Shown here piece after piece: positions 54,390 through 64,000 of a DNA stretch of 64,000 nt. The notes under the pieces are model-generated. The model saw only the letters and a list, made by a program, of their open reading frames with translations. It did not search any database and was not told the DNA's origin. Numbering within the stretch: position 1 is the first letter of the stretch; the number at the start of each line of letters is the position of its first letter. The translations under genes and the position numbers were made by a program. Source of the DNA: an uncultured bacterium (GTDB taxonomy: Bacteria; Verrucomicrobiota; Verrucomicrobiia; Limisphaerales; J093); NCBI GenBank assembly GCA_963735925.1, contig CAVTMT010000005.1:59402-123401 (forward strand), in the 5' to 3' direction.

Positions 54390-55296
54390 GACGACAGCCT
54401 ACGACTCATCGCGATTCTTCCGGTGTAGCTGCCACACAATATTCTCCACACCTGTGGTCCGCACGGCATCCGTCCGGGGCGGCGTTGCACAGGCTCGGAG
54501 CCGAATCAATCAATTGCGGTGATCGCAGTGGCACGCATCGCTCATCGAGTCGGCCCGCATTCGGTCGGGACTTCGAGTGCTCATGCCTTCGCGGGTTGGC
54601 GCCTCTGGTTGCTCCGCGCACCGGCGCGCCGGCATCAGCCGTCACGCCGCTGCTCCGGCTCCGCGCCCGCCGACGCCAATCCGCTCAGGTGTGTTTCGGC
54701 GGAGCGGTCGTGCTCTCTCGGTCCGGGGTGAAGAGAGCACTCCCGCTCCTTCACGAAACACAAAAACATGAGCACCAACGAAGTCATCACCCCGACCGCA
54801 AACCAGTCCGTCTCAACCCCAATGATGGAGGCGATTCAATCAGTCACCCGGCAAGGCGCACGCGCGCTGAGGAACTACAATCAACCCCAGGAATGGAAGC
54901 TGATCTCACTTCGAGAATGTCCAACACCCGAATCTCTCCAACTCTGCGACACGCCGGATATGGCGGCAAATTATTGGCGGGCGAACGTCGTCACCAACCC
55001 CTACTTCAACCCCGAGTGCGAAACTCTCGCGGTTCTGATGCTGAACACCAGGCGTCGTGTCAAAGGTCACTGCGTCGTCTCAATTGGAACGATGGATACC
55101 ATTCTCGTGCATCCTCGCGAGGTCTTTCGATTGGCAGTCATCGCCAGTGCTCATGCCATCATAATTATGCACAACTTATGTGCTGCGGCACATAAGTTGT
55201 GTTATGTGCAGCGCCGGTTTATGTGGTGCTGGATTGCTGCCACCTCGGAGTGGAGCTGATGAATGAAGTGTGTCTTGGGTGCGACGCTGCACATAA

Positions 55297-56310
55297 TCAG
55301 AGCCCCGATAACCACGAAAGGATGTCGGGGCTTTTCTGCCACGAGCTTCCGTGCTTGCCCTGAGTTGGGATCAGTTTCTCCGCCGACTGAAGCGTCTTGC
55401 GTTTCATCTCCAGATCAATCTCGACGTAGCCATGGGTCGTCTCGATGGAAGCATGGCCCAGCCAGGAACGGATCATGTTGAGATCGACATTCGACTGGAG
55501 CAGGTGCATCGCCGTGGTGTGGCGCCAGGTGTGGGGAGTTACCTTCCGGGTGAAGAGCGACGGGCATTCGGTTGCAGTTTCGGCCACTCGATGGGCAATG
55601 ATGTGCCGCAAACCGAAACGCGAGAGCCGATTCCCCTCCGTGTTGACGAACAGGGGGACGGCTTCATCCAGGCGCACCGGGCGCGCCGCCAAGTAGGTTT
55701 TGATGGCTTGGACTGTTTCCGTCCACAGCGGGCAGGTTCGCTCTTTGCGGCCTTTGCCAAGGATGCGCACGTGGTAAGGCCGGCTGAAGCGGACGTGGTT
55801 GACATCCAGGTTCACCAGCTCTTGGGCACGCATGCCCGTGTTATAGAGCAGCCGGAGCAGGCCGTCGTCGCGTCGTCCCAGCGGCGTTCGGCAGTTGATC
55901 TGCGCGAAGATCTTCAGGACCTCCGACCGCTCCAGGTATTCGGGCACGCGCTGCGCATGGCGCTTGAACGGAACCGCGAGAATGGATTCGCAGTGGGCCA
56001 GGTAACGCGGGTCGGTCTGGGCCACGTATTGAAAGAAGGAGTGAATGGCTGCCAACCGGTTGTTCCGCGTGGGCACCGCATTGTGCCGCTCGCGCTCCAA
56101 GTAGGCCAAGAAGTGACGGACCGTGTCCGGTGTCAGCTCTTCCAACGTCAGACCGATGCTGGTTTTACGATGTCGCCTGGAGGCAAACTGCAAGAAGAGC
56201 TTCCAGGTGTCGCGATACGCCAGCACGGTATGGCCGCTGAGCCCCCGCTGCGAGACCAGGTATTGCTCGAAGAAGTTCCGAATCAGAGTTCCGAGGTCAG
56301 GCCGTGTCAT
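55297..56310 (-). CDS. Tyrosine recombinase, third gene of RIT1
   Basis: LYNTGMRAQE, GKGRKER, TPHTWRHTTAMHLL, WLGHASIETTHGY. Start MTRPDLG. Confidence 0.92.
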   Translation of the reverse strand: MTRPDLGTLIRNFFEQYLVSQRGLSGHTVLAYRDTWKLFLQFASRRHRKTSIGLTLEELTPDTVRHFLAYLERERHNAVPTRNNRLAAIHSFFQYVAQTDPRYLAHCESILAVPFKRHAQRVPEYLERSEVLKIFAQINCRTPLGRRDDGLLRLLYNTGMRAQELVNLDVNHVRFSRPYHVRILGKGRKERTCPLWTETVQAIKTYLAARPVRLDEAVPLFVNTEGNRLSRFGLRHIIAHRVAETATECPSLFTRKVTPHTWRHTTAMHLLQSNVDLNMIRSWLGHASIETTHGYVEIDLEMKRKTLQSAEKLIPTQGKHGSSWQKSPDILSWLSGL

Positions 56311-57283
56311 GGCGTTTGGTCCGAGGGCGGAGTGGAATGGCAAAATGGGCGTGAAAACGCTGGCCGGCGCTCTCCAGCAACTGGGCTGTGGCCTGGAGGT
56401 AGATTTCCGTGCCGGTGATGGTGCTATGACCCAGATAGGTTGAGAGCAGCGGAAGTTTGGCCGCGAGATTGGCGCCCTGCCGATACCACGCCAGGAGGCG
56501 ATGCACGGCAAACGTGTGGCGCAAGTCGTGGATGCGCGGGCCGGATTGCCCCTTGGGACCGCGCAGGCCAAGGCTGCGCAGCAGTTCCAGAAAGAGCGTC
56601 ACGAAGCCCGGATGTCCGTGCCGGGTGCCGATGATATTCAGGAACACCGGCGCCGTGGGAGCGATTGAAAAGCCAGCGCTCCGACGCTGGCGCAAATACT
56701 TTTTCACCCGCCGGGCTGCGGAGGGCGAGAGGGGCACGTATCGGGACTTTTGGAACTTGCCCTCGCGAACCTCAATGACCCGGCGCTGGAGATCAACATC
56801 CCGCAGCGTCAAATTCAAGGCCTCCCCGATGCGGAGGCCCGTCGCGTAAAGAAGCCCGATCAAGTTCGCGGCCACGACTGGTCGCAGGCTTCCCGACGGG
56901 CCGAGTTGCCGTGCCGCTGCCATGAGGCGGCGGATGTCCTGACGAGTATAGATGTGAGGCGCCGGCCGGGTCCGCCGCGGCGAGAAGCTTTGATGAATGA
57001 GGCAGGTCTCGGGATCAAAATAGTGCAGGTAGCGGCAGAACCGGCGCAGAATACAAAGCCGATTGATCCGGGTGTTTGGACTCAAGGAAGCCATGCTTTC
57101 ATTCCAGCGCTCCACAACTGGGCGACTGATCGTTTGCCCCGGTTTGAGTTCGCCAGTCAGGAAGCGATCCAGGTAAATCAGGATTTTCTGATTGCTGAGT
57201 CCACCCCGGCTTCGTGCGTAATGCGTTTCCCAAAAGGCCTGGAGCCGAGGCGCCAGCGGACTGCGAAAAAGACATGTGCCCAT
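56297..57283 (-). CDS. Tyrosine recombinase, second gene of RIT1
   Basis: PHIYT, YATGLRIGEA, GKFQKSR, HDLRHTFAV, LSTYLGH...TEIYL. Confidence 0.92.
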   Translation of the reverse strand: MGTCLFRSPLAPRLQAFWETHYARSRGGLSNQKILIYLDRFLTGELKPGQTISRPVVERWNESMASLSPNTRINRLCILRRFCRYLHYFDPETCLIHQSFSPRRTRPAPHIYTRQDIRRLMAAARQLGPSGSLRPVVAANLIGLLYATGLRIGEALNLTLRDVDLQRRVIEVREGKFQKSRYVPLSPSAARRVKKYLRQRRSAGFSIAPTAPVFLNIIGTRHGHPGFVTLFLELLRSLGLRGPKGQSGPRIHDLRHTFAVHRLLAWYRQGANLAAKLPLLSTYLGHSTITGTEIYLQATAQLLESAGQRFHAHFAIPLRPRTKRHDTA

Positions 57284-57287
57284 AAAC

Positions 57288-58544
57288 TCAGTCCTTGACT
57301 GGCCACGGCAGGGCGACCTGACGAAGTGAGGCGAGGTTGGCCTTGGCGTAAATGAAAGTCGTGTCGATGTAACGATGGCCCAGAACATCGGCAATAGCCT
57401 TGATGGGCGAGTCATGGGCCAGAGCGCGAATCGCCCAGGAGTGGCGGAGGCTGCGTGAGCCGCTGCCGGCGGTTTTGACGCCCGCGTGTTCGAGGTGGCG
57501 GCGCACGATCATGGAGATGGCGACGCTGTCGAGCGGACGAAAAGGAGCTTTGGCGCTGAGAAAAAGCTGGCGGCACAGGGTCTGTCCTGGGCGATGTTGC
57601 AGGTATTGAATCAGGGCTTCACCCACCGCCTGCATGAGCGGCAAGACCACTTCCTTGCCGCCCTTTTGGGCGCGGATCCGGATCCGCGAGTGCTGCCAGT
57701 CTAAATCATCCAAAAGCAATTGGGCCGCTGAAACACCCCGGATGCCGTAGGCCATCAGCAGCACGAGGATCGCATGGTCCCGAGCCCCAACGGGTGTGTC
57801 TCGCGGGATCGCCTTGAGCATTTTTCCCAGCACCGAGTCATCCAGCCCCTTGGGCAGGGAGGCATGCCGATAGCGACGGATGGGCGGCACCAACCCCGAG
57901 AAGTCGGCGGGGGCGTGACGCCGGGATGCGCAGTAGCGGAAGAATCGGCGTAAGGTTCCAGCCAAGGCTTCTGGGGCCGTGCTGATTCGGAGCAACTCTT
58001 TGACGAAGCCCTCGACCGTGGCGGCCTTGAGGGCTGGGAACCGCTCGCGCTGCGCGCTTCGGCCCATCGCCTCAAGCAAGGAGCTGACTTGGACGCGGCA
58101 CCGTTTGATCGTAACCTCGGAGAACTGGCACTCGACTCGGAGATAACGCGTATAGGGCTCCAGGAGCCAGTCAAAGGGCTGGACGATCCGTTCAGGCTTC
58201 GGTGGCTTCAGGACTTGGATCTGAATCAGGTAATCGAAAAGATGCCTGATCGCGGCCCGCGCCGTGTGAAGGGCTGAATAACCCCGGGGTGGGTTGGGAA
58301 GATGGGCGAAATAGGCCCGCAAGAAAGCTTCGACCTGGGCCTCGCCCAGTTGGTCACAGTGCGAGACGCGTTGCTCCACCAGGAAGCCATTGAGTTGGCA
58401 ACACTTGGCGAGAATGACGCAGCCTGTGTGGGGAGCGTAGCCTTTGGCTTGGAGATAAGCGGCGAAGCCGTCGAAATGAGGTCCGAGCAGGCCTCGGCGG
58501 AAATCGACCAACGTGCGTTTTTCTTTGAACCAGAATTCGAGCAT
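57288..58544 (-). CDS. Tyrosine recombinase, first gene of RIT1
   Basis: RDHAIL, YGIRG, QKGGK, SLRHSWA, IADVLGH...TTFIYAK...LRQVALPWP. Confidence 0.9.
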   Translation of the reverse strand: MLEFWFKEKRTLVDFRRGLLGPHFDGFAAYLQAKGYAPHTGCVILAKCCQLNGFLVEQRVSHCDQLGEAQVEAFLRAYFAHLPNPPRGYSALHTARAAIRHLFDYLIQIQVLKPPKPERIVQPFDWLLEPYTRYLRVECQFSEVTIKRCRVQVSSLLEAMGRSAQRERFPALKAATVEGFVKELLRISTAPEALAGTLRRFFRYCASRRHAPADFSGLVPPIRRYRHASLPKGLDDSVLGKMLKAIPRDTPVGARDHAILVLLMAYGIRGVSAAQLLLDDLDWQHSRIRIRAQKGGKEVVLPLMQAVGEALIQYLQHRPGQTLCRQLFLSAKAPFRPLDSVAISMIVRRHLEHAGVKTAGSGSRSLRHSWAIRALAHDSPIKAIADVLGHRYIDTTFIYAKANLASLRQVALPWPVKD

Positions 58545-58732
58545 ACGGGTTGACCGTTTGGGATTGAAAACGGCGGAGCCAAAGTGAACGGTTATGGTTT
58601 TGAAGTTGCAGTGTCCAAAATCCGCCGCGATCGCCCCGGCCTTGCCACGCGCAGTCCCGCCTTCTGGAAAAAGCCGCTGCGTCCCGAAAGAACGCAGCGG
58701 TTATGTGGAGTTGTGTCGAGCTGAGGATCGCG

Positions 58733-58999
58733 TCACAACGGATGTTCGGACTGCCCGGATGAGGTCGGCTTCGATTCATCCGGCGCGGCGTCAGAGGCGC
58801 GGAGCTCAATCATTCCGGGAGCAACGCACGTGACATGAACGCGATTCCCCGGTCGGAACCCAGCTCGCTCAAGCCAGCGTCCCATGAGCCGGATTTTCGG
58901 TATTGTGAGGCCCTTCCAGAAATCGCCCACAGCCTCGATCCTCAATCTGCGAACGGGCGGGTCTGGCGGAGGACGCAGGAGTGATTTACCTTCAAGCAT
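58733..58999 (-). CDS. SymE-like (AbrB-fold, type I toxin family) protein inside RIT1
   Basis: PKIRLMGRWLERAGFRPGNRVHV matches the SymE signature; strong RBS AAGGAGG before ATG 58999. Confidence 0.75.
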   Translation of the reverse strand: MLEGKSLLRPPPDPPVRRLRIEAVGDFWKGLTIPKIRLMGRWLERAGFRPGNRVHVTCVAPGMIELRASDAAPDESKPTSSGQSEHPL

Positions 59000-59371
59000 A
59001 ACCCTCCTTTCGCCGTAAAACCCGCGCGAACGTCAGCACCGCCGATCGGTGGCTGCACATAAATCGGCGCTGCACATAACATAATCATCCAAGCGGGGAA
59101 CCAGCTCCGTCCGAGGCGGACATCCGCATCACCCGCGATCTCATCCGCGCCGGACAACTCCTCAAGGTCGAAATTCTTGACCACGTGATCCTGTTATCCA
59201 AATGTTTGGATAAGATGATTTAGGCCAAGTGCCGGATTATCCCAAGTGGGTGACGGATCTAGCGTGAACACTGTGCCGCCACCTGATTGGCACTTGGCAT
59301 AATGTGAAGGTGGCGGAGGACCGGCGACTTCGGCTGGCGGCGATGTGAAGTTGATGCCGTGATGGGGGTCT

Positions 59372-60586
59372 ATGATCAAACGACCCCGTTACGGACCATA
59401 TCACATGGGCCGGAACGTTTGTTCCTCCGACCTTCAGCTCATTGACGGAGCGTTCGCCAGGCATATGCGTGAGCACGGCTATTCAGTGAGCTCAGTGGCA
59501 CAATATCGGAAGCACCTCGTTCGCGTCGCGGGTTGGCTTGCGGTCCATCATCGCCGATTGACCAGTCTTACCCGCAAGGAACTCCCTCGACTTGCGCGCC
59601 TGATGGTGCCGCAGGCGACATATCCCGCACTCTTTGGTGCGCTCAATCGGTGGCTGAAGTTCCGCCAATGCTACGCAACAGAACCGCGCGAGCCATGGGC
59701 CTCTTCGCTCAACGACTATAGGGCATTCTTGCAGAACCACCGTGGTTTCGTGCGACTGACCGCTGACGGATATGTCGCCTTTGCACGGCGTTATCTCTCG
59801 TGGCAGTTCGGCGACCGCGAAGCACGGTGGGCCAATGTCCGCGCTCACGATATCTGGCGATTCGCGGAGCTTTGTGCCCAGGGTCACACTTCCGGCTACG
59901 CCAAGTCCTTTCTCAGTGCGTTGCGACGGTTTCTCGGTTTCGTTCAGCTGCGCGGCGCCTGTCCCGCGCAACTGGTGCAGGCGATCCCCACGGTCGCAAA
60001 CTTTCGCCAACACTACAGCCCCGGCGGACTCACAGGCACTCAACGGAAGAAGTTGCTGCGCTCCTTCGATCGGCAGACCGCCCAAGGCTGCTGTGAGCAC
60101 GCGGCGGCGCTCTGCATGATCGAGTTGGGGCTACGCAACTGCGAGGTGGTCCAGCTTCGGTTCCAAGACATCGACTGGGAGGCAGGTTTGGTTCGTGTGC
60201 CGGTGATGAAGAGCGGAGTCGCCCGAATCGTCCCGCTCCCTGCACCAATGGGCGACGTGTTGCGCCACTATATCCAACGCTTTCGCGGAGGCAGCCAGAG
60301 TGACCGTGTGTTTCTGCGGCACGCCAAGATGGTCGGAACCCCGGTCAGTACCCATTGCGTGCGGATGGCCATGCGGCGCGCTTACCGGCGTTGTGGGTTT
60401 CCTGGAGCCTACGGTGGGACGCACGTGTTGCGGCGGACTTTCGCCACCCGCCTACACGCGCGCGGTGCAGACCTGCGCGAGATCGGCGATCTCCTTGGCC
60501 ACCAAGACCTGATGACTACCAGCCTCTACACTGACCTCACCGTCTCCGACCTGCGCGTGCTGGTTCAACCCTGGCCCCTCCCATGA
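59372..60586 (+). CDS. Tyrosine recombinase, first gene of RIT2
   Basis: LGLRNCEV, MKSG, GTHVLRRTFAT, IGDLLGH...TTSLY...VQPWP. Start uncertain. Confidence 0.9.
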   Translation: MIKRPRYGPYHMGRNVCSSDLQLIDGAFARHMREHGYSVSSVAQYRKHLVRVAGWLAVHHRRLTSLTRKELPRLARLMVPQATYPALFGALNRWLKFRQCYATEPREPWASSLNDYRAFLQNHRGFVRLTADGYVAFARRYLSWQFGDREARWANVRAHDIWRFAELCAQGHTSGYAKSFLSALRRFLGFVQLRGACPAQLVQAIPTVANFRQHYSPGGLTGTQRKKLLRSFDRQTAQGCCEHAAALCMIELGLRNCEVVQLRFQDIDWEAGLVRVPVMKSGVARIVPLPAPMGDVLRHYIQRFRGGSQSDRVFLRHAKMVGTPVSTHCVRMAMRRAYRRCGFPGAYGGTHVLRRTFATRLHARGADLREIGDLLGHQDLMTTSLYTDLTVSDLRVLVQPWPLP

Positions 60587-61539
60587 AACCCACCACCATG
60601 CATTCTCGGGTGCGCGCGTATCTCGCGCACCGTCGCAAGCTCGGGTTCGTGCTGAGCAGGCAAGCCTATCACCTGCGCAAATTCGCCTCCTTCGCCGACA
60701 AGACAGCATCGGGGCAGCCACTAACCGCCGCCCTCGCGTTGCAATGGGCCACGTCGGTCGGCCACAACCGATGCGGGTATCACGCCATGCGCTATCAGTC
60801 GGTACGCGGCCTGGCGCGCTACCTCGCCGCCCTCGATCCTCACACGGAGGTGCCACCGGCACGGATGCTCGGTTCGACCTGTATTCGGCGCCAGCCGCAC
60901 ATTTACACCCTTGAGCAGGTCCGGCTCATGATGAAGCAGGCGCGGCAACTCCCGCATCGGTTCCGCCACATGGCACTCCGGTCACGGACGTTTGAAACAA
61001 TGATCGGGTTGGTGTTCTGCACCGGCCTTCGCCCGGCCGAGGTGTGTAAGTTGCGGCTCGTTGACTTTGACCCTCGGGCACGCACGATCGTGATCAGCCA
61101 GACCAAGTTCAGTCCGCAGCGGACCTTGCCCTTACATTCGACCGTCGTGCGTGCGCTGGAACGTTACCAAAAGGCGCGACGGCGGATCATCCCGTTCGGG
61201 GATCATCTCTTCGTCGGCCGGCGCGGGGTCCCTTTCACCTCCGAAACGATTGGCGCTGTTTTCCGCTCCATCGTCCGAGGCATCGAGCCCAACGGCGCGC
61301 GGCCCGTCGTTCGCTTTAGCGACCTGCGCCATACGTTTGCCTCCCGATTGATTTCCGCCTGGAGCCGCCGAGGCGAATCGGTGCCGCACTATTTGGTGCT
61401 GCTGTCGCGCTACATGGGGCACAAACGGTTCAACGCCACCTGGTGGTACGTATCGCCTGACTGTTCGTCGCTGAGCAAGGCGGCGCAGCTCTTTCAACGC
61501 TTCCAGCAAAATCAACCATCCCACGATTCCCCACTATGA
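60583..61539 (+). CDS. Tyrosine recombinase, second gene of RIT2
   Basis: YLAHRRKLGF, PHIYT, TGLRPAE, TKF, DLRHTFA, LSRYMGH...TWWY. Confidence 0.9.
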   Translation: MKPTTMHSRVRAYLAHRRKLGFVLSRQAYHLRKFASFADKTASGQPLTAALALQWATSVGHNRCGYHAMRYQSVRGLARYLAALDPHTEVPPARMLGSTCIRRQPHIYTLEQVRLMMKQARQLPHRFRHMALRSRTFETMIGLVFCTGLRPAEVCKLRLVDFDPRARTIVISQTKFSPQRTLPLHSTVVRALERYQKARRRIIPFGDHLFVGRRGVPFTSETIGAVFRSIVRGIEPNGARPVVRFSDLRHTFASRLISAWSRRGESVPHYLVLLSRYMGHKRFNATWWYVSPDCSSLSKAAQLFQRFQQNQPSHDSPL

Positions 61540-62531
61540 CCTCCAATCCCTTTCCCACTCTCATCGAACGATTCTTTGTCGATCATCTTCGCACCCAACG
61601 CAACGTGAGCCCGCGGACGATTGAGGCCTACAGCGACACCTTCCGCATTCTGCTGAGGTATCTCGCCGAAACGCATCACCAGACGATTGATCAGCTCACC
61701 TTCCGTGAGTTCGGGGCCGACGATATTCTGGGCTTCCTTGACCATCTCGAACGCGTACGTGGAAATTGTGTGCGTTCCCGCAACGCGCGCCTGGCTGCCA
61801 TCCGGGCTTTCGCACATTTTGCCTTGGCCTATTCCGGCCCAGCTTTTGCGGTCGCCAGCCAACGGATTCTGTCGATCCCATGTAAGCGCACCACGAAGCC
61901 AGTGTTGACCTTCATGACCCGCGAAGAGGTCATGGCGCTCCTCGCCGCCATCGACACGACGACGAACTCCGGCCGACGGGATCACCTGCTCTTCAGTCTG
62001 CTGTATCAGACCGGTGCTCGCGTTTCGGAGGCGTCACAACTTCGCCCCAGTGACGTTCGGGATAGGTTTGTGCGCCTGCATGGCAAGGGCCGAAAGGAGC
62101 GGGCGGTTCCCATCGCGAACGACTTGCTGCACCGACTGCACGAGCATGTCAGGACCAACAAGGTGTCACCAGACTGCCCCTTATTCGCCAACCGGCAGGG
62201 TCTCGCGCTGACCCGTGAAGGCATCGCGCTCCGGCTTGATCTTGCGGTCCGCAGGGCGGAGCAAACTTGTCCGTCCCTGCGAGGACGCCGAATTACCCCG
62301 CATACCTGGCGGCACTCAACGGCGATGCACCTGCTGCAAGCCGGCGTGCCGCTGGAAGTCATTGCTCTCTGGCTCGGCCACGAGCAACCGGCAGCGACGC
62401 ATCCCTACGTGCAAGCCGATATCAAAATGAAGCGGGAATGTATGAAGCTCCTTGAACAACCCAGCAAGCCCCGACGCAAAAGCGACCCGCTGCGGTTCTC
62501 CCGGCTGTTGTCATTTCTGGAGGCCCAATAA
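61536..62531 (+). CDS. Tyrosine recombinase, third gene of RIT2
   Basis: RNARLAAI, YQTGARVSE, HGKGRKER, TPHTWRHSTAMHLL, WLGHE...THPY. Confidence 0.92.
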   Translation: MTSNPFPTLIERFFVDHLRTQRNVSPRTIEAYSDTFRILLRYLAETHHQTIDQLTFREFGADDILGFLDHLERVRGNCVRSRNARLAAIRAFAHFALAYSGPAFAVASQRILSIPCKRTTKPVLTFMTREEVMALLAAIDTTTNSGRRDHLLFSLLYQTGARVSEASQLRPSDVRDRFVRLHGKGRKERAVPIANDLLHRLHEHVRTNKVSPDCPLFANRQGLALTREGIALRLDLAVRRAEQTCPSLRGRRITPHTWRHSTAMHLLQAGVPLEVIALWLGHEQPAATHPYVQADIKMKRECMKLLEQPSKPRRKSDPLRFSRLLSFLEAQ

Positions 62532-62729
62532 TTATCCCAAGTTCCAATCGGCTATCCGTGCTGTCTTTGCTCGAAATCACACATTGGACTATCACTAACT
62601 TGGGATAATCCGGCACTTGGCCTAAATCGTGGGGCATGGCAAACATGCCAGTCTTCGAGAATTGGGGTTCTTCTATAGCTGAGCGATTCGCTCCAATGCT
62701 GGCCGCAGCACAGCGGACCAGCCGAATCG

Positions 62730-63587
62730 TCATTGGCGCAGGCCAGAGATGAACTCGGCGACGCGCGAGAACGCAGCCGCCAAATCCTGGCTCAGCCCGC
62801 ACTTGCCGGCCATCTCCGCAAACGGTCCGGCCCAAGCCTGGGGAGGAGGTTCGAGCGACGACGGGACGGGGTGAGTGTCGCGGCGGCGGAATGTCGCCTC
62901 GATGCACTGGCCCACGCGGTCGACATCGAGCGTGCCCGATTCGATCAACAGCAGCAGGTCCACCAAGTCCTTCACCCGCGAATTCGGTCGGCCCTCACGG
63001 GGCAATGAATAGGCATGCAACTTCTCAGCGAACTGTTCCTCCCGGGAAATCGCTGGCACTTTCGAGGGCGCAATCCCAGCGAAGCCCATCCAGTCCTGCC
63101 CTTCCAGAAGCTCGAAGGGTTCTCGGAGCACGTCGCCCGAACTCACATCCAAGTGGAAGCTGGCGAAACTCCGGTCGCCCATGGAAGCTTCGACCGGAAA
63201 TCGTGATCCGCCATAGGGCGCCGCGTCCAAATCCATGGTCGGTTCGCCAATAAGGAACTCGAAACCATCGCCCAAGTCTGCATTGGCGAGGTCCTGAAGA
63301 AGAAGTCGGACTGCGGCATCACCCCATGGACCGCCGCTCCCTGGCATCAACCTCACGGCAAGGTCAATGTCCCGTGTTGTCCGGGCCGACTTAATCCGCA
63401 ACTCCATCGCATAACCGCCCTTGAGCAGCCATGGCGCATTCGGATTGGCGAACAAGCGGCACAGGAGTCGATCGAACGCGACCTGTCGCCTCATCCTTGG
63501 GAGATCGCCACCTCCGTGCCGGGACGTGGCAATCAGCCGGTCCTCCAGCGCGCGGCGAAGTGCTTCCGGTGTTCGATAGGTCTTCAT
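62730..63587 (-). CDS. AbiEii-family nucleotidyltransferase toxin (type IV TA)
   Basis: FDRLLCRL, WLLKGGYAM, RTTRDIDL, AEKLHA, SRVKDLVDL. Start MKTYRT overlaps the upstream stop (ATGA). Confidence 0.9.
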   Translation of the reverse strand: MKTYRTPEALRRALEDRLIATSRHGGGDLPRMRRQVAFDRLLCRLFANPNAPWLLKGGYAMELRIKSARTTRDIDLAVRLMPGSGGPWGDAAVRLLLQDLANADLGDGFEFLIGEPTMDLDAAPYGGSRFPVEASMGDRSFASFHLDVSSGDVLREPFELLEGQDWMGFAGIAPSKVPAISREEQFAEKLHAYSLPREGRPNSRVKDLVDLLLLIESGTLDVDRVGQCIEATFRRRDTHPVPSSLEPPPQAWAGPFAEMAGKCGLSQDLAAAFSRVAEFISGLRQ

Positions 63588-64000
63588 GGCAGCACGGCCT
63601 TCAGCAGTGAATCGGTCTCGCACTCCTTGTGCTTGGCTGCAAGCTCCCGTTCGGTGACTAGCCCTCGCCGCCGCGCATCGGATACAACCCGGCGCAGATC
63701 TTCAATGGCGGTGGGATTGGCCTTGGCCAGATCCATCACTGCTCGCAGCGCCCGGCAAACGGCAAATCCCCGCAGACGGGTGCATTCCGCAGCCGGTACC
63801 GTCCCACGATGGAGAACGACGCCTTTCGGAACGGGGCCATTCCGGCGAAAAGTCAGTGGCACGATCATGTGCAGATCCGCCGGGTTGAAGTCTCCGAGGT
63901 CGAACACACTCAGTGCCGTCTCGTGGGAGTACACACCCACAGGCTTTTCGTCCCGTCCCCGCGACCACAGATACCAGGCCACTTTGTCACCGTCCTCCGG
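63584..64000 (-). CDS. AbiEi-like antitoxin (5'-truncated by window edge)
   Basis: VYSHETALSVFDL.DFNP..LHMIVP, VVLHRG; coupled to the AbiEii gene. Confidence 0.8.
   Translation of the reverse strand, partial: PEDGDKVAWYLWSRGRDEKPVGVYSHETALSVFDLGDFNPADLHMIVPLTFRRNGPVPKGVVLHRGTVPAAECTRLRGFAVCRALRAVMDLAKANPTAIEDLRRVVSDARRRGLVTERELAAKHKECETDSLLKAVLP

Follow-up and report, generated by a model that had tools for sequence, protein, structure and literature searches.

RIT (recombinase-in-trio) elements carry a general end module in which a 6-bp core, a 20-bp palindrome and a second, inverted 6-bp core follow one another (6-20-6), and the palindrome of this module is DNA of the element, not of radC or another target. 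The 6-20-6 stretch is probably a conserved junction module, with a joined form of the element that has two usable cores explaining both arrangements found, i.e., the palindrome beside the ritA end or beside the ritC end. From comparison of the sequences, we argue that the two arrangements would arise by separate insertions via alternative cores and not by flipping in place.

Two RIT elements inside one radC gene

The window, i.e., the whole stretch of 64,000 nucleotides that was analysed, contains a radC gene (PF04002) split by two RIT elements, RIT1 and RIT2, and the pieces of this gene translate as ...AIIIMHN / HNHPSGEPAPS...LDHVIL / IVGHGKHASLRELGFFYS*. All coordinates and letters given for the ends of both elements in the first-pass annotation were found in the sequence, and the layout core(6)-palindrome(20)-inverted core(6)-TIR...TIR-core(6) was present in RIT1 and in RIT2. 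The parts are as follows (c1 and c3, outer cores; c2, inner core; TIR, terminal inverted repeat):

54768..55169, + strand: radC 5' part, PF04002 RadC-like JAB domain (E 1e-13); its last codon precedes the first core
55170..55175, + strand: RIT1 outer core c1, CACAAC
55176..55195: RIT1 20-bp palindrome, TTATGTGC-tgcg-GCACATAA, 8-bp arms and 4-nt centre TGCG
55196..55201, + strand: RIT1 inner core c2, GTTGTG, the exact reverse complement of c1
55202..55229, + strand: RIT1 ritC-side TIR, motif repeats from 55202 and 55219, inverted copy at 55290
55297..56571 (longest ORF), - strand: RIT1 ritC, PF00589 (E 7e-32)
56297..57415 (longest ORF), - strand: RIT1 ritB, PF00589 (E 2e-23), without the SAM-like N-terminal domain
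57288..58544, - strand: RIT1 ritA, PF00589 (E 3e-22) and PF02899
59052..59079, + strand: RIT1 ritA-side TIR, motif copies at 59056 and 59073
59080..59085, + strand: RIT1 outer core c3, CATAAT, which doubles as radC HN codons
59080..59187, + strand: radC middle part, translated as HNHPSGEPAPS...LDHV
59188..59193, + strand: RIT2 outer core c1, ATCCTG
59194..59213: RIT2 20-bp palindrome, TTATCCAAA-tg-TTTGGATAA, 9-bp arms and 2-nt centre
59214..59219, + strand: RIT2 inner core c2, GATGAT
59220..59253, + strand: RIT2 ritA-side TIR, motifs at 59220 and 59237, inverted copy at 59293
59372..60586, + strand: RIT2 ritA, PF00589 (E 2e-28)
60583..61539, + strand: RIT2 ritB, with 4-bp overlaps with ritA (60583-60586) and ritC (61536-61539)
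61536..62531, + strand: RIT2 ritC, PF00589 (E 3e-29)
62592..62625, + strand: RIT2 ritC-side TIR, motifs at 62599 and 62616, inverted copy at 62532
62626..62631, + strand: RIT2 outer core c3, ATCGTG
62626..62682, + strand: radC 3' part, translated as IVGHGKHASLRELGFFYS*

RIT elements (Van Houdt et al. 2009, 2012; Ricker et al. 2013) have in common three neighbouring, overlapping genes for tyrosine recombinases, ordered ritA-ritB-ritC, together with TIRs, a length of ~3.4-3.9 kb and identical copies within a genome. RIT1 and RIT2 are members of this family, and nothing sets them apart from it. Their gene trios point in opposite directions (RIT1 on the - strand, RIT2 on the + strand), all six recombinase genes match PF00589 (Phage_integrase), and in both elements the middle protein of the trio is without the SAM-like N-terminal domain; an alignment of five RitB members shows no variation in the catalytic columns (R, K, H, R, H and Y). 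The RIT1 ORFs were listed as longest frames only, and the true starts of ritC and ritB are probably near 56300 and 57290, respectively. Among the matches listed, the top-scoring RIT1 match of each RIT2 protein was the one at the same trio position (A-A 113, B-B 100 and C-C 214 bits), and the best own-genome match of RIT1 ritC was RIT2 ritC, with 39.5% identity and 214 bits. The TIR arms are 29 nt long and 93% complementary in RIT1 (55197-55225 / 59056-59084) and 37 nt long and 95% complementary in RIT2 (59217-59253 / 62592-62628).

The whole 32 bp of the RIT1 module form a perfect hairpin with a 14-bp stem, the sole perfect one in the 64-kb window with a stem of at least 12 and a loop of at most 6. 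As single-stranded DNA, this 32-nt module folds with -15.6 kcal/mol (z -7.4), and 0 of 200 shuffles were as good; the corresponding values for the 32-bp module of RIT2 are -5.8 kcal/mol and z -3.5. The outer cores are imperfect direct repeats, identical at 4/6 positions in RIT1 and 5/6 in RIT2. Only 4/6 positions match between the RIT2 inner core and the reverse complement of either outer core, and the reverse complement of this c2, ATCATC, is the c1 of a related element, L022. Exact complementarity of c2 to c1 was found in 20 of 38 element sides.

The idea that each palindrome is built from the TIR motif of its own element held across RITs, in which the arm was identical to its own terminal repeat at a mean of 7.89 of 10 positions, against 6.66 for shuffled partners, with 0 of 5000 shuffles reaching the observed sum. 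It did not hold for the terminal repeat of RIT2: the palindrome arm there is unlike this repeat, TTAGGCCAAG (59220), and is similar to the subterminal repeat, TTATCCCAAG (59237), minus one base.

Distribution of the module and source of the palindrome

The module was found in all five analysable RIT families of the window's genome and, among 30 fully flanked RITs of other phyla, in 27. The latter came from a survey of 80 loci kept, from which 22 without flanks for the TIR search and 19 with a TIR score below 19 were set aside, leaving 39, of which 30 had both flanks. The palindrome lay on the ritA side only in 18 of these RITs, on the ritC side only in seven, on both sides in two and on neither in three, after seven loci had been re-read by eye or by a second criterion; the automatic criterion alone gave 17, 6, 0 and 7, respectively, and was passed by 48 of 3000 random control windows (1.6%). 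Additionally, pSHV1 and pMSHV, two named plasmids of Sphingobium herbicidovorans MH, carry the module, as does a Cupriavidus oxalaticus plasmid. When a fixed frame of 20 bp plus 6 bp was applied, the bases that follow aligned with the opposite end's terminal repeat in 36 element sides (28 distinct). Thus, the 6-20-6 geometry with three 6-bp cores, first noticed in RIT1 and RIT2, is real and conserved beyond them. The ratio of ritA-side to ritC-side palindromes is ~3:1, which a fully symmetric junction does not predict, and the TIR-core-TIR junction of one locus (L151) lacks the 20-bp palindrome.

Empty sites were represented in metagenome contigs of run X3, two of which join 55169 to 59080 (84 nt on the shorter side), and one of which joins 59187 to 62626 (28 nt on the shorter side). 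The empty sites hold one core, with RIT1 c1 missing and the c3 version kept, and three uninterrupted radC paralogues likewise carry a single core and no palindrome. The proposal that the outer direct cores bound a mobile unit including the palindrome is borne out by these contigs, which are without the unit and retain one core. RIT1 is present in four copies with 99-100% identity in the window's genome (RIT2 is single-copy); copies A and B have an identical module in different radC genes, and the RIT1 palindrome of the window recurs unchanged at copies B and D.

Of 401 genomes searched in the phylum, five contained matches to the RIT1-type pattern, with 0 control matches, and every listed and inspected match adjoins a RIT end (one further match is unlisted); at the same time, no solo palindrome was present in the window's genome. 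Together with the empty sites devoid of the palindrome and with its orientation, which tracks the body in 5/5 pairs (see below), this makes it very improbable that the palindrome is a relic or landing pad, i.e., a miniature solo element or earlier footprint beside which the RIT was inserted later, even though it resembles the first 8-10 bp of both TIRs set back to back, and a near-solo case at C5:259452 in the window's genome consists of the palindrome and only ~60 bp of TIR.

Palindrome side, orientation and core exchange

The first-pass annotation had placed the palindrome on one and the same side of the target irrespective of the direction of the trio, and this was found to hold within single families and genomes. 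In the complete genome G189, four copies occupy four radC genes, and the palindrome adjoins the radC 5' part in all of them, lying by the ritC/cargo end in two and by the ritA end in two. Both arrangements within a family were also found for L056/L147, L148/L149 and L093/L100. Where the palindrome is asymmetric, its orientation was constant relative to the body and flipped relative to the target in 5/5 informative pairs, a small sample in which two pairs come from one genome and the RIT3 pair depends on the inferred end identity of a 60-bp fragment. In radC and IS3 orfA targets, the palindrome lies on the 5' side, but in IS66, IS256 and tyrosine-recombinase gene targets it lies on the 3' side of the gene, so that its position is not tied to the direction in which the target is transcribed.

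The cores at c1 and c3 can trade places. In one family of G402, c1/c3 read TCGCTA/TCGGTG in three copies and TCGGTG/TCGCTA in two, with c2 constant. CATAAT, which the run X3 contigs show as native sequence of the radC in the window, is kept at all four RIT1 copies; elsewhere it is c3 of copies B and C and adjoins the ritA-side end in copy D, which begins at a contig edge. Copy C has ATTGAG as its left core, which does not belong to the element and is not a plausible radC core either.

In the mechanism proposed here, the mobile unit would be core-palindrome-core'-body; it would enter at a 6-bp target core and would therefore be flanked by the direct cores c1 and c3, which would behave as exchangeable crossover ("coupling") sequences. 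The element ends would meet as TIR(ritC end)-coreA-P.P'-coreB-TIR(ritA end), and each core would then lie between a TIR repeat and a palindrome arm bearing the same kind of motif, resulting in two complete crossover sites of opposite orientation. Crossover of the target core with coreA would leave the palindrome beside the ritA end, and crossover with coreB would leave it beside the ritC end; in either case, core polarity would force the palindrome to the same target side, and its orientation relative to the body would stay unchanged. Rit proteins would bind the palindrome arms and the TIR repeats, and cleavage would fall at the core boundaries. The body-following orientation of the palindrome fits such a putative joined form, TIR-core-palindrome-core'-TIR, crossing over at either core.

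An in-place flip had been suggested earlier, in which the inner inverted core recombines with the far outer core and the palindrome stays fixed, as a two-step route or as an on/off switch relative to the radC promoter. The inner core is indeed an inverted copy of the outer cores, and bodies do occur in both orientations relative to the target, but the suggestion predicts a target-aligned palindrome, the opposite of the body alignment in the five pairs, and we regard the flip as quite improbable. The switch fares no better, since radC is broken in either orientation and other targets carry the palindrome 3'. Invertible switches such as fim, Hin and shufflons have a segment that occurs in both orientations between inverted crossover sites; RITs differ from these in that the palindrome flips with the body and is not fixed outside the segment. 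The metagenome contigs, in which rare forms are invisible, contained no strand-changing joint of a flipped body and no back-going joint of a joined form (circle junction or hairpin).

The side on which the palindrome lies also bears on the view that it is a transcription terminator or insulator shielding the recombinase genes from target-gene read-through. The hairpin is stable and promoter-proximal in radC, as such a function would have it, but no T-run follows the palindrome, its position is downstream-side in IS66, IS256 and tyrosine-recombinase targets and possible at either end of the trio, and its arms co-vary with the TIR binding motif, which is expected for a protein site. A role of this kind appears extremely improbable.

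A possible folded-strand substrate and comparison with known systems

It is conceivable, but rather unlikely, that the substrate is one DNA strand, in which TIRs, cores and palindrome arms pair into a long hairpin that serves as the crossover site. The palindrome centre would be the loop, and the stem would be one complete duplex site (TIR repeat, core and palindrome arm); one strand would be exchanged with the target, and replication would then lead to the observed product, as for integron attC, and exchange at either stem arm would yield both insertion orientations. If the palindrome were absent, the core would be unpaired in the hairpin loop; if present, it would keep the core double-stranded and supply a second binding arm, and would therefore have a reason to exist. 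The exact c2-c1 complementarity noted above, the good in silico folding of the 32-nt module and the tolerance of non-identical outer cores all count for a folded strand. So do the TIRs of 90-100 bp, which are identical within an element and differ between related elements at up to 36/90 positions (L032 versus L049: 36 mirrored changes, 0 one-sided), although copying between the ends could equally produce mirrored changes. The excerpted text of Nielsen et al. (2017; PMC5737581) describes RIT DNA as enriched after exonuclease, with no circle junction detectable by read pairs. A duplex circle yields the same products, however, and the data obtained here do not tell a single-stranded from a double-stranded substrate. 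The test for strand-specific G.T pairs in the TIRs was weak (8 G.T, 21 A.C and 18 other on the gene strand, with related families non-independent), and related SE elements use nicked double-stranded circles (PMC10214605, excerpt).

The attC site is a single-strand, palindromic one, as given in the abstracts of PMC2095811 and PMC3053210. The likeness to it lies in the imperfect palindrome, which could fold from one strand into a duplex tyrosine-recombinase site; the RIT hairpin would far exceed attC in length (TIRs 30-100 bp), and both of its arms appear usable. The attP(+) hairpin of CTX phage shares this folded-palindrome likeness, with strand exchange on the folded hairpin likewise followed by replication. 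If folding were true, RITs would join integron cassettes and CTX-type phages as a third and very widespread example of tyrosine recombination on a hairpin substrate, and the folded strand would account for circle junctions not having been found.

No description of the 6-20-6 module was found in the literature searched, with the main RIT paper (Ricker 2013) outside it, and the description of this end module may be the new part. Insertion of a RIT in radC of Tn6054 has already been recorded (PMC3414803, excerpt), and TIRs of 47 and 51 bp are named "palindromic repeats" in the excerpt of PMC5737581; these TIRs scored 47 and 43 in the TIR search used here. Target specificity, empty site and movement of RITs are given as "NT" in the excerpt of PMC10214605.

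The Tn554 family (Tn554, Tn558, Tn559, Tn5406 and Tn6188), with site-specific insertion at a conserved radC site, resembles the RITs described here at the gene level in targeting radC, and also in moving 6-bp junction sequences from site to site, in the lack of true target duplication and in having more than one tyrosine recombinase (excerpts of PMC3788773 and PMC10214605). Tn554 has two recombinases and TnpC (tnpA, tnpB and tnpC) and no inverted repeats (PMC3788773, excerpt), whereas a RIT encodes three proteins with recombinase domains and has long TIRs as well as the palindrome module. Assignment of RIT1 and RIT2 to the Tn554 family does not fit their three recombinase-domain genes and clear TIRs.

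SEs (strand-biased circularizing integrative elements) and GInts (three-integrase genomic islands) are similar to RITs in carrying several tyrosine-recombinase-type genes and a 6-bp "fingerprint/footprint" that moves between sites, and in their joined form, attS, short imperfect inverted repeats surround a 6-bp spacer (PMC10214605, excerpt). Their joint has one spacer and two motifs, whereas the putative RIT junction would have two spacers around the palindrome. Moreover, RITs, unlike SEs and GInts, are found inserted in both orientations.

Two RIT elements in one radC gene

The radC gene (PF04002) of the window is split into three pieces by two unrelated recombinase-in-trio (RIT) elements, RIT1 and RIT2, and a Phage_integrase domain was found in all three genes of each. 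Translation of the radC pieces reads ...AIIIMHN / HNHPSGEPAPS...LDHVIL / IVGHGKHASLRELGFFYS*, which places RIT1 within the conserved motif HNHPSG and RIT2 within LDHVI-G. The genes were named ritA, ritB and ritC from the trio-to-trio matches between RIT1 and RIT2 and from the middle protein, which has no SAM-like N-terminal domain. Each element carries a module of core (6 bp), palindrome (20 bp) and core' (6 bp) beside one terminal inverted repeat (TIR); the outer direct cores are called c1 and c3, and the inner inverted core c2.

Features of the split radC region:
54701-54749, 18-nt inverted repeat (89% complementary, 13 nt apart), immediately upstream of the radC start codon
54768-62682, radC, in three pieces
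RIT1, gene trio on the minus strand, ritC thus closest to 55202; ends CACAAC / TTATGTGC tgcg GCACATAA / GTTGTG / TIR ... TIR / CATAAT
RIT2, gene trio on the plus strand, ritA thus closest to 59220; ends ATCCTG / TTATCCAAA tg TTTGGATAA / GATGAT / TIR ... TIR / ATCGTG
62730-63623, minus strand, gene of an AbiEii-type nucleotidyltransferase toxin (PF08843, E 1e-29), immediately downstream of radC

The letters and coordinates that the first-pass annotation had assigned to both end modules were all correct on re-reading of the sequence. The 32 bp of RIT1 form a perfect hairpin throughout with a 14-bp stem, and no second perfect hairpin of this size exists in the 64-kb window; their folding energy as DNA is -15.6 kcal/mol (z -7.4). 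Pairing of the outer six bases is poorer in RIT2, whose 32 bp reach -5.8 kcal/mol (z -3.5). At each of the four ends, the motif stands in two direct copies, 17 bp apart, and a third, inverted copy is located ~70-95 bp inward at three ends and ~380 bp inward at the ritA-side end of RIT1. RIT1 and RIT2 are ordinary RIT family members by every feature tested.

Distribution of the end module and its targets

RITs are common across bacterial phyla, and the module is confirmed as a general feature of them. In G000, the genome from which the window comes, core(6)-palindrome(20)-core'(6)-TIR was found at one end in all five analysable RIT families: RIT1 (four copies), RIT2 (one), RIT3 at the end of contig C1, RIT4 (locus L019) and RIT5 (L020). 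A RitB-alignment scan with one genome per species gave 574 confirmed places; the best 80 of these 574 were retained, and their record titles cover Verrucomicrobiota, Actinomycetota, Acidobacteriota, Pseudomonadota, Bacillota and others. Too little flank for the TIR search was available at 22 of the 80 loci, and 19 of the 58 searchable loci were dropped with a TIR score below 19; 30 of the 39 remaining loci had flanks of at least 30 bp on both sides and formed the set for the palindrome tally. The TIR finder failed or gave chance matches at L103-L106 (short TIRs or cargo) and L021, the scores of 12-13 at L143, L145 and L152 were at chance level, and a 596-point repeat at L153 was set aside as not RIT ends. 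L087 was left uncounted as a possible assembly fold-back: its 3.9-kb contig begins within the palindrome and has an identical asymmetric palindrome at each end.

With an automatic criterion (stem of at least 12, no more than 2 mismatches, loop no longer than 6, directly adjoining the TIR tip) that only 48 of 3000 random windows passed, the palindrome was assigned to the ritA side only at 17 loci, to the ritC side only at 6 and to neither at 7. These seven loci were re-read: the palindrome of L093 and L100 is imperfect (8 of 10 pairs), that of L031 and L079 occurs on both sides, concealed within the called repeat, and L024, L034 and L050 have none, with the same target half flanking both sides. 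The final tally for the 30 loci was thus 18 on the ritA side, 7 on the ritC side, 2 on both and 3 with none. The bases after a fixed frame of 20 bp + 6 bp can be aligned to the other end's terminal repeat in 36 element sides (28 distinct). The palindrome arm agrees with the element's own terminal repeat at 7.89 of 10 positions; shuffled partners gave 6.66, and none of 5000 shuffles was as high. The module, its palindrome degenerate, is also present in RITs of a Cupriavidus oxalaticus plasmid and of the Sphingobium herbicidovorans MH plasmids pSHV1 and pMSHV, the latter being the elements studied by Nielsen et al. 2017 (PMC5737581).

The module is undescribed in the literature surveyed, and an earlier description, for instance in Ricker et al. 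2013, the principal RIT paper, is possible. The closest mention in the parts of the sources covered is a single line on a palindromic sequence (PMC3414803, section 11), and the TIRs themselves are termed "palindromic repeats" in the part of PMC5737581 consulted.

Besides the two radC motifs of the window, insertion sites lie in genes of other mobile elements, where each of several RIT families uses a single conserved coding motif (L024, L029, L030, L034, L036, L050, L056, L066, L073, L076, L086, L093, L100, L147, L175 and L176). The targets are the IS66 transposase (..ALG|RKNWLF), an IS256-type transposase (..Q.C.VH), the end of IS3-family orfA (..VLWV|KEATK*) and the HxLRH motif of tyrosine-recombinase genes. 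RIT1-like elements at L105, L107 and L108 (genome G189) and L104 (G225) have a cargo of ~1.7 kb, a MerR-like regulator gene included, located between ritC and the terminal repeat, and RITs are therefore able to carry passenger genes. At L151 (G404:C13), a 31-bp inverted copy of the terminal repeats replaces the 20-bp palindrome and abuts the ritA-side end over a 6-bp spacer (TIR'-core-TIR), which may represent the junction of a second copy, tandem or truncated.

Extent of the mobile unit and exchange of the cores

The palindrome is a constant part of the mobile element and not target DNA. In metagenome run X3, 55169 is connected directly with 59080 (2 contigs, shorter side 84 nt) and 59187 with 62626 (1 contig, shorter side 28 nt). 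These radC alleles contain one core but no palindrome and no body; as they may always have been unoccupied, they fix the boundaries and are not proof of excision. A single HN-codon core (CACAAC, CATAAC or CACAAT) is likewise present in the three uninterrupted radC paralogues of G000 (C3:1827818, C8:32818 and C9:227639), whose HN codons differ synonymously at the RIT1 target. RIT1 copies A (in the window) and B (contig C8), located in different radC genes, have identical CACAAC-palindrome-GTTGTG ... CATAAT.

Two other roles for the palindrome were considered. A solo palindrome serving as a landing pad was rejected: G000 has no solo case, and a search of 401 genomes of the phylum for the RIT1-type pattern gave matches in 5 (0 control matches), where every listed place inspected adjoins a RIT end, one match not being among those listed. 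A transcription terminator or insulator was also rejected, as the palindrome is followed by no T-run, keeps to no fixed side with respect to target transcription and has arms that vary together with the TIR motif.

The empty alleles of run X3 retain the c3 versions of the cores (CATAAT and ATCGTG), so c1 in the window arrived with the element. CATAAT is also found at c3 of RIT1 copies B and C and beside the ritA-side end of copy D. In a seven-copy family of genome G402 with five copies resolved, c1/c3 is TCGCTA/TCGGTG in three and reversed in two, with c2 constant, and c2 of RIT2 is the reverse complement of ATCATC, the c1 of a related element at the same radC site in another genome (L022). 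Across the elements, c1 and c3 are identical in 19 of 37 element sides, and c2 is exactly complementary to c1 in 20 of 38. With such exchange, the 6-bp cores behave like the carried junction hexamers of Tn554 and SEs, as these are presented in the sections of PMC10214605 and PMC3788773 consulted. Of the nearest other systems, the Tn554 family resembles the RITs described here in its radC target and carried hexamer but has no inverted repeats and a different gene set; SEs and GInts have one 6-bp spacer between two motifs. Since cores are exchanged with the target, some of the HN-codon variants of the paralogues could be marks of past RIT visits.

Two arrangements and a proposed route of insertion

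Both ARRANGEMENTS are present within one family, and the palindrome keeps to one target side. In the complete genome G189, four RIT1-like copies occupy four radC genes with the palindrome beside the ritC/cargo end in two and beside the ritA end in two, and the radC 5' part adjoins the palindrome in all four. The same was found for L056 and L147 (G403; IS3-family orfA), for L148 and L149 (also G403), and for L093 and L100, located on one contig in a tyrosine-recombinase gene. In the IS66 transposase targets (L029, L030, L175 and L176), two elements are ritA-sided and two ritC-sided. The side of the palindrome thus has no fixed relation to the genes within families, and the earlier proposal that the body inverts in place between the inner and far cores, the palindrome staying fixed to radC, came through this tabulation.

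It did not come through the DISCRIMINATING test, in which a palindrome made asymmetric by its centre or a mismatch was compared with the target and with the body. Inversion in place predicts an orientation constant relative to the target, and a joined form opening at either core predicts one constant relative to the body. Five pairs were informative, and their two readings are reverse complements in every case.

Pairs compared for palindrome orientation, each read from target to element:
Pair 1, RIT1 copies A and B (centre TGCG) and the right end of copy D (centre CGCA)
Pair 2, RIT3 at C1 and fragment C5:259452, the end of the fragment inferred from its likeness to the ritA-side end of RIT1
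Pair 3, L093 and L100
Pair 4, L056 and L147
Pair 5, L149 and L148

The orientation went with the body in all five pairs, and inversion in place was rejected, as no pair had the predicted orientation. Of the first-pass interpretation, the cores and the mobile unit therefore stand, and the in-place inversion does not; nor was an on/off switch relative to the radC promoter upheld, the palindrome lying, for example, beside the 3' part of the gene in all four IS66 targets. Metagenome contigs of runs X1, X2, X3 and X6 (Logan; best share 0.40) contain empty-site joints, and no circle junction or flipped body was found in these contigs, a data type blind to rare forms. Homologous recombination was rejected as the source of the alternative arrangement, since two like-arranged copies cannot produce it, as worked out on paper.

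The better and most likely reading of these sequences is a double crossover site around the element-borne palindrome. Rit recombinases would bind the TIR repeats and the palindrome arms, and the two ends would be joined as TIR(ritC end)-coreA-palindrome-coreB-TIR(ritA end), each core thereby lying between a TIR repeat and a palindrome arm. Strand exchange would take place at the boundaries of the 6-bp cores, and the target would cross over with the joined form at coreA or at coreB. As coreB is an inverted copy, the palindrome would come to lie on the same target side either way; its orientation with the body, the opposite of that expected from inversion in place, fits a junction crossing over at coreA or coreB.

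The joined form might be a duplex circle or a folded single strand, the sequence being compatible with both. In the latter case, the substrate may be one strand folded as a hairpin through its TIRs, which would give the palindrome a purpose, as without it the core would be an unpaired loop of the TIR hairpin. A folded strand also fits the concerted evolution of the TIRs (L032 and L049 have 36 mirrored differences in 90 nt and no one-sided ones, a count that partly restates the perfect TIRs within each element) and the exonuclease-resistant RIT DNA without circle junctions reported in the consulted part of Nielsen et al. (PMC5737581). Related SEs, however, work through nicked duplex circles, according to the sections of PMC10214605 covered, and a wobble-pair test on the TIR mismatches was weak: on the gene strand of 37 elements, 8 were G.T, 21 A.C and 18 other, a weak bias in which related families are counted more than once. 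The A.C-type mismatches would be G.T wobbles on the opposite strand.

In the consulted parts of PMC3414803 and PMC10214605, RIT movement is without experimental demonstration, and the ends, the targets and the need for three recombinases are called unresolved; table 1 of the latter has "NT" for target specificity, empty sites and movement. The comparative data delimit the RIT mobile unit with single-base precision, reveal which 6-bp crossover sequences are exchanged with the target and establish the 20-bp palindrome of putative binding-site arms as a constant part of the element; they fit a double crossover site with insertion through either of two cores. The open question of RIT movement thereby becomes a concrete experiment with defined substrates.

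Some copies have two palindromes or none. RIT1 copy D (C13:1-3936) has the module on both sides, with both palindromes in the same orientation on the body strand; the end with assembled flank abuts a radC 5' part, and contig C13 begins inside the other palindrome. In copy C (C5:255296-259211), the module is absent and the flanks are two inverted radC 3' parts. Copies C and D would be the reciprocal products expected when two copies, one in each arrangement, undergo homologous recombination. L031 and L079 resemble copy D in having palindromes on both sides, and L024, L034, L050 and L076 resemble copy C in having none; it is only such two-palindrome or palindrome-free copies that this recombination can explain. 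For annotation, this means that recombination between oppositely inserted RIT copies leaves copies with two palindromes or none, and that assemblies break at the palindrome and TIRs. In the G000 assembly, three contig ends (C13, the C1 end and the C8 end) lie within RIT ends or palindromes, and part of its fragmentation is therefore due to RITs. The RIT3 copy at C8:302441-306041 follows the radC 5' part of RIT1 copy B with only ~190 bp upstream of ritA, where no recognisable terminal repeat was found, and an end fragment matching RIT3, with the palindrome, is located elsewhere in G000 at C5:259420-259483.
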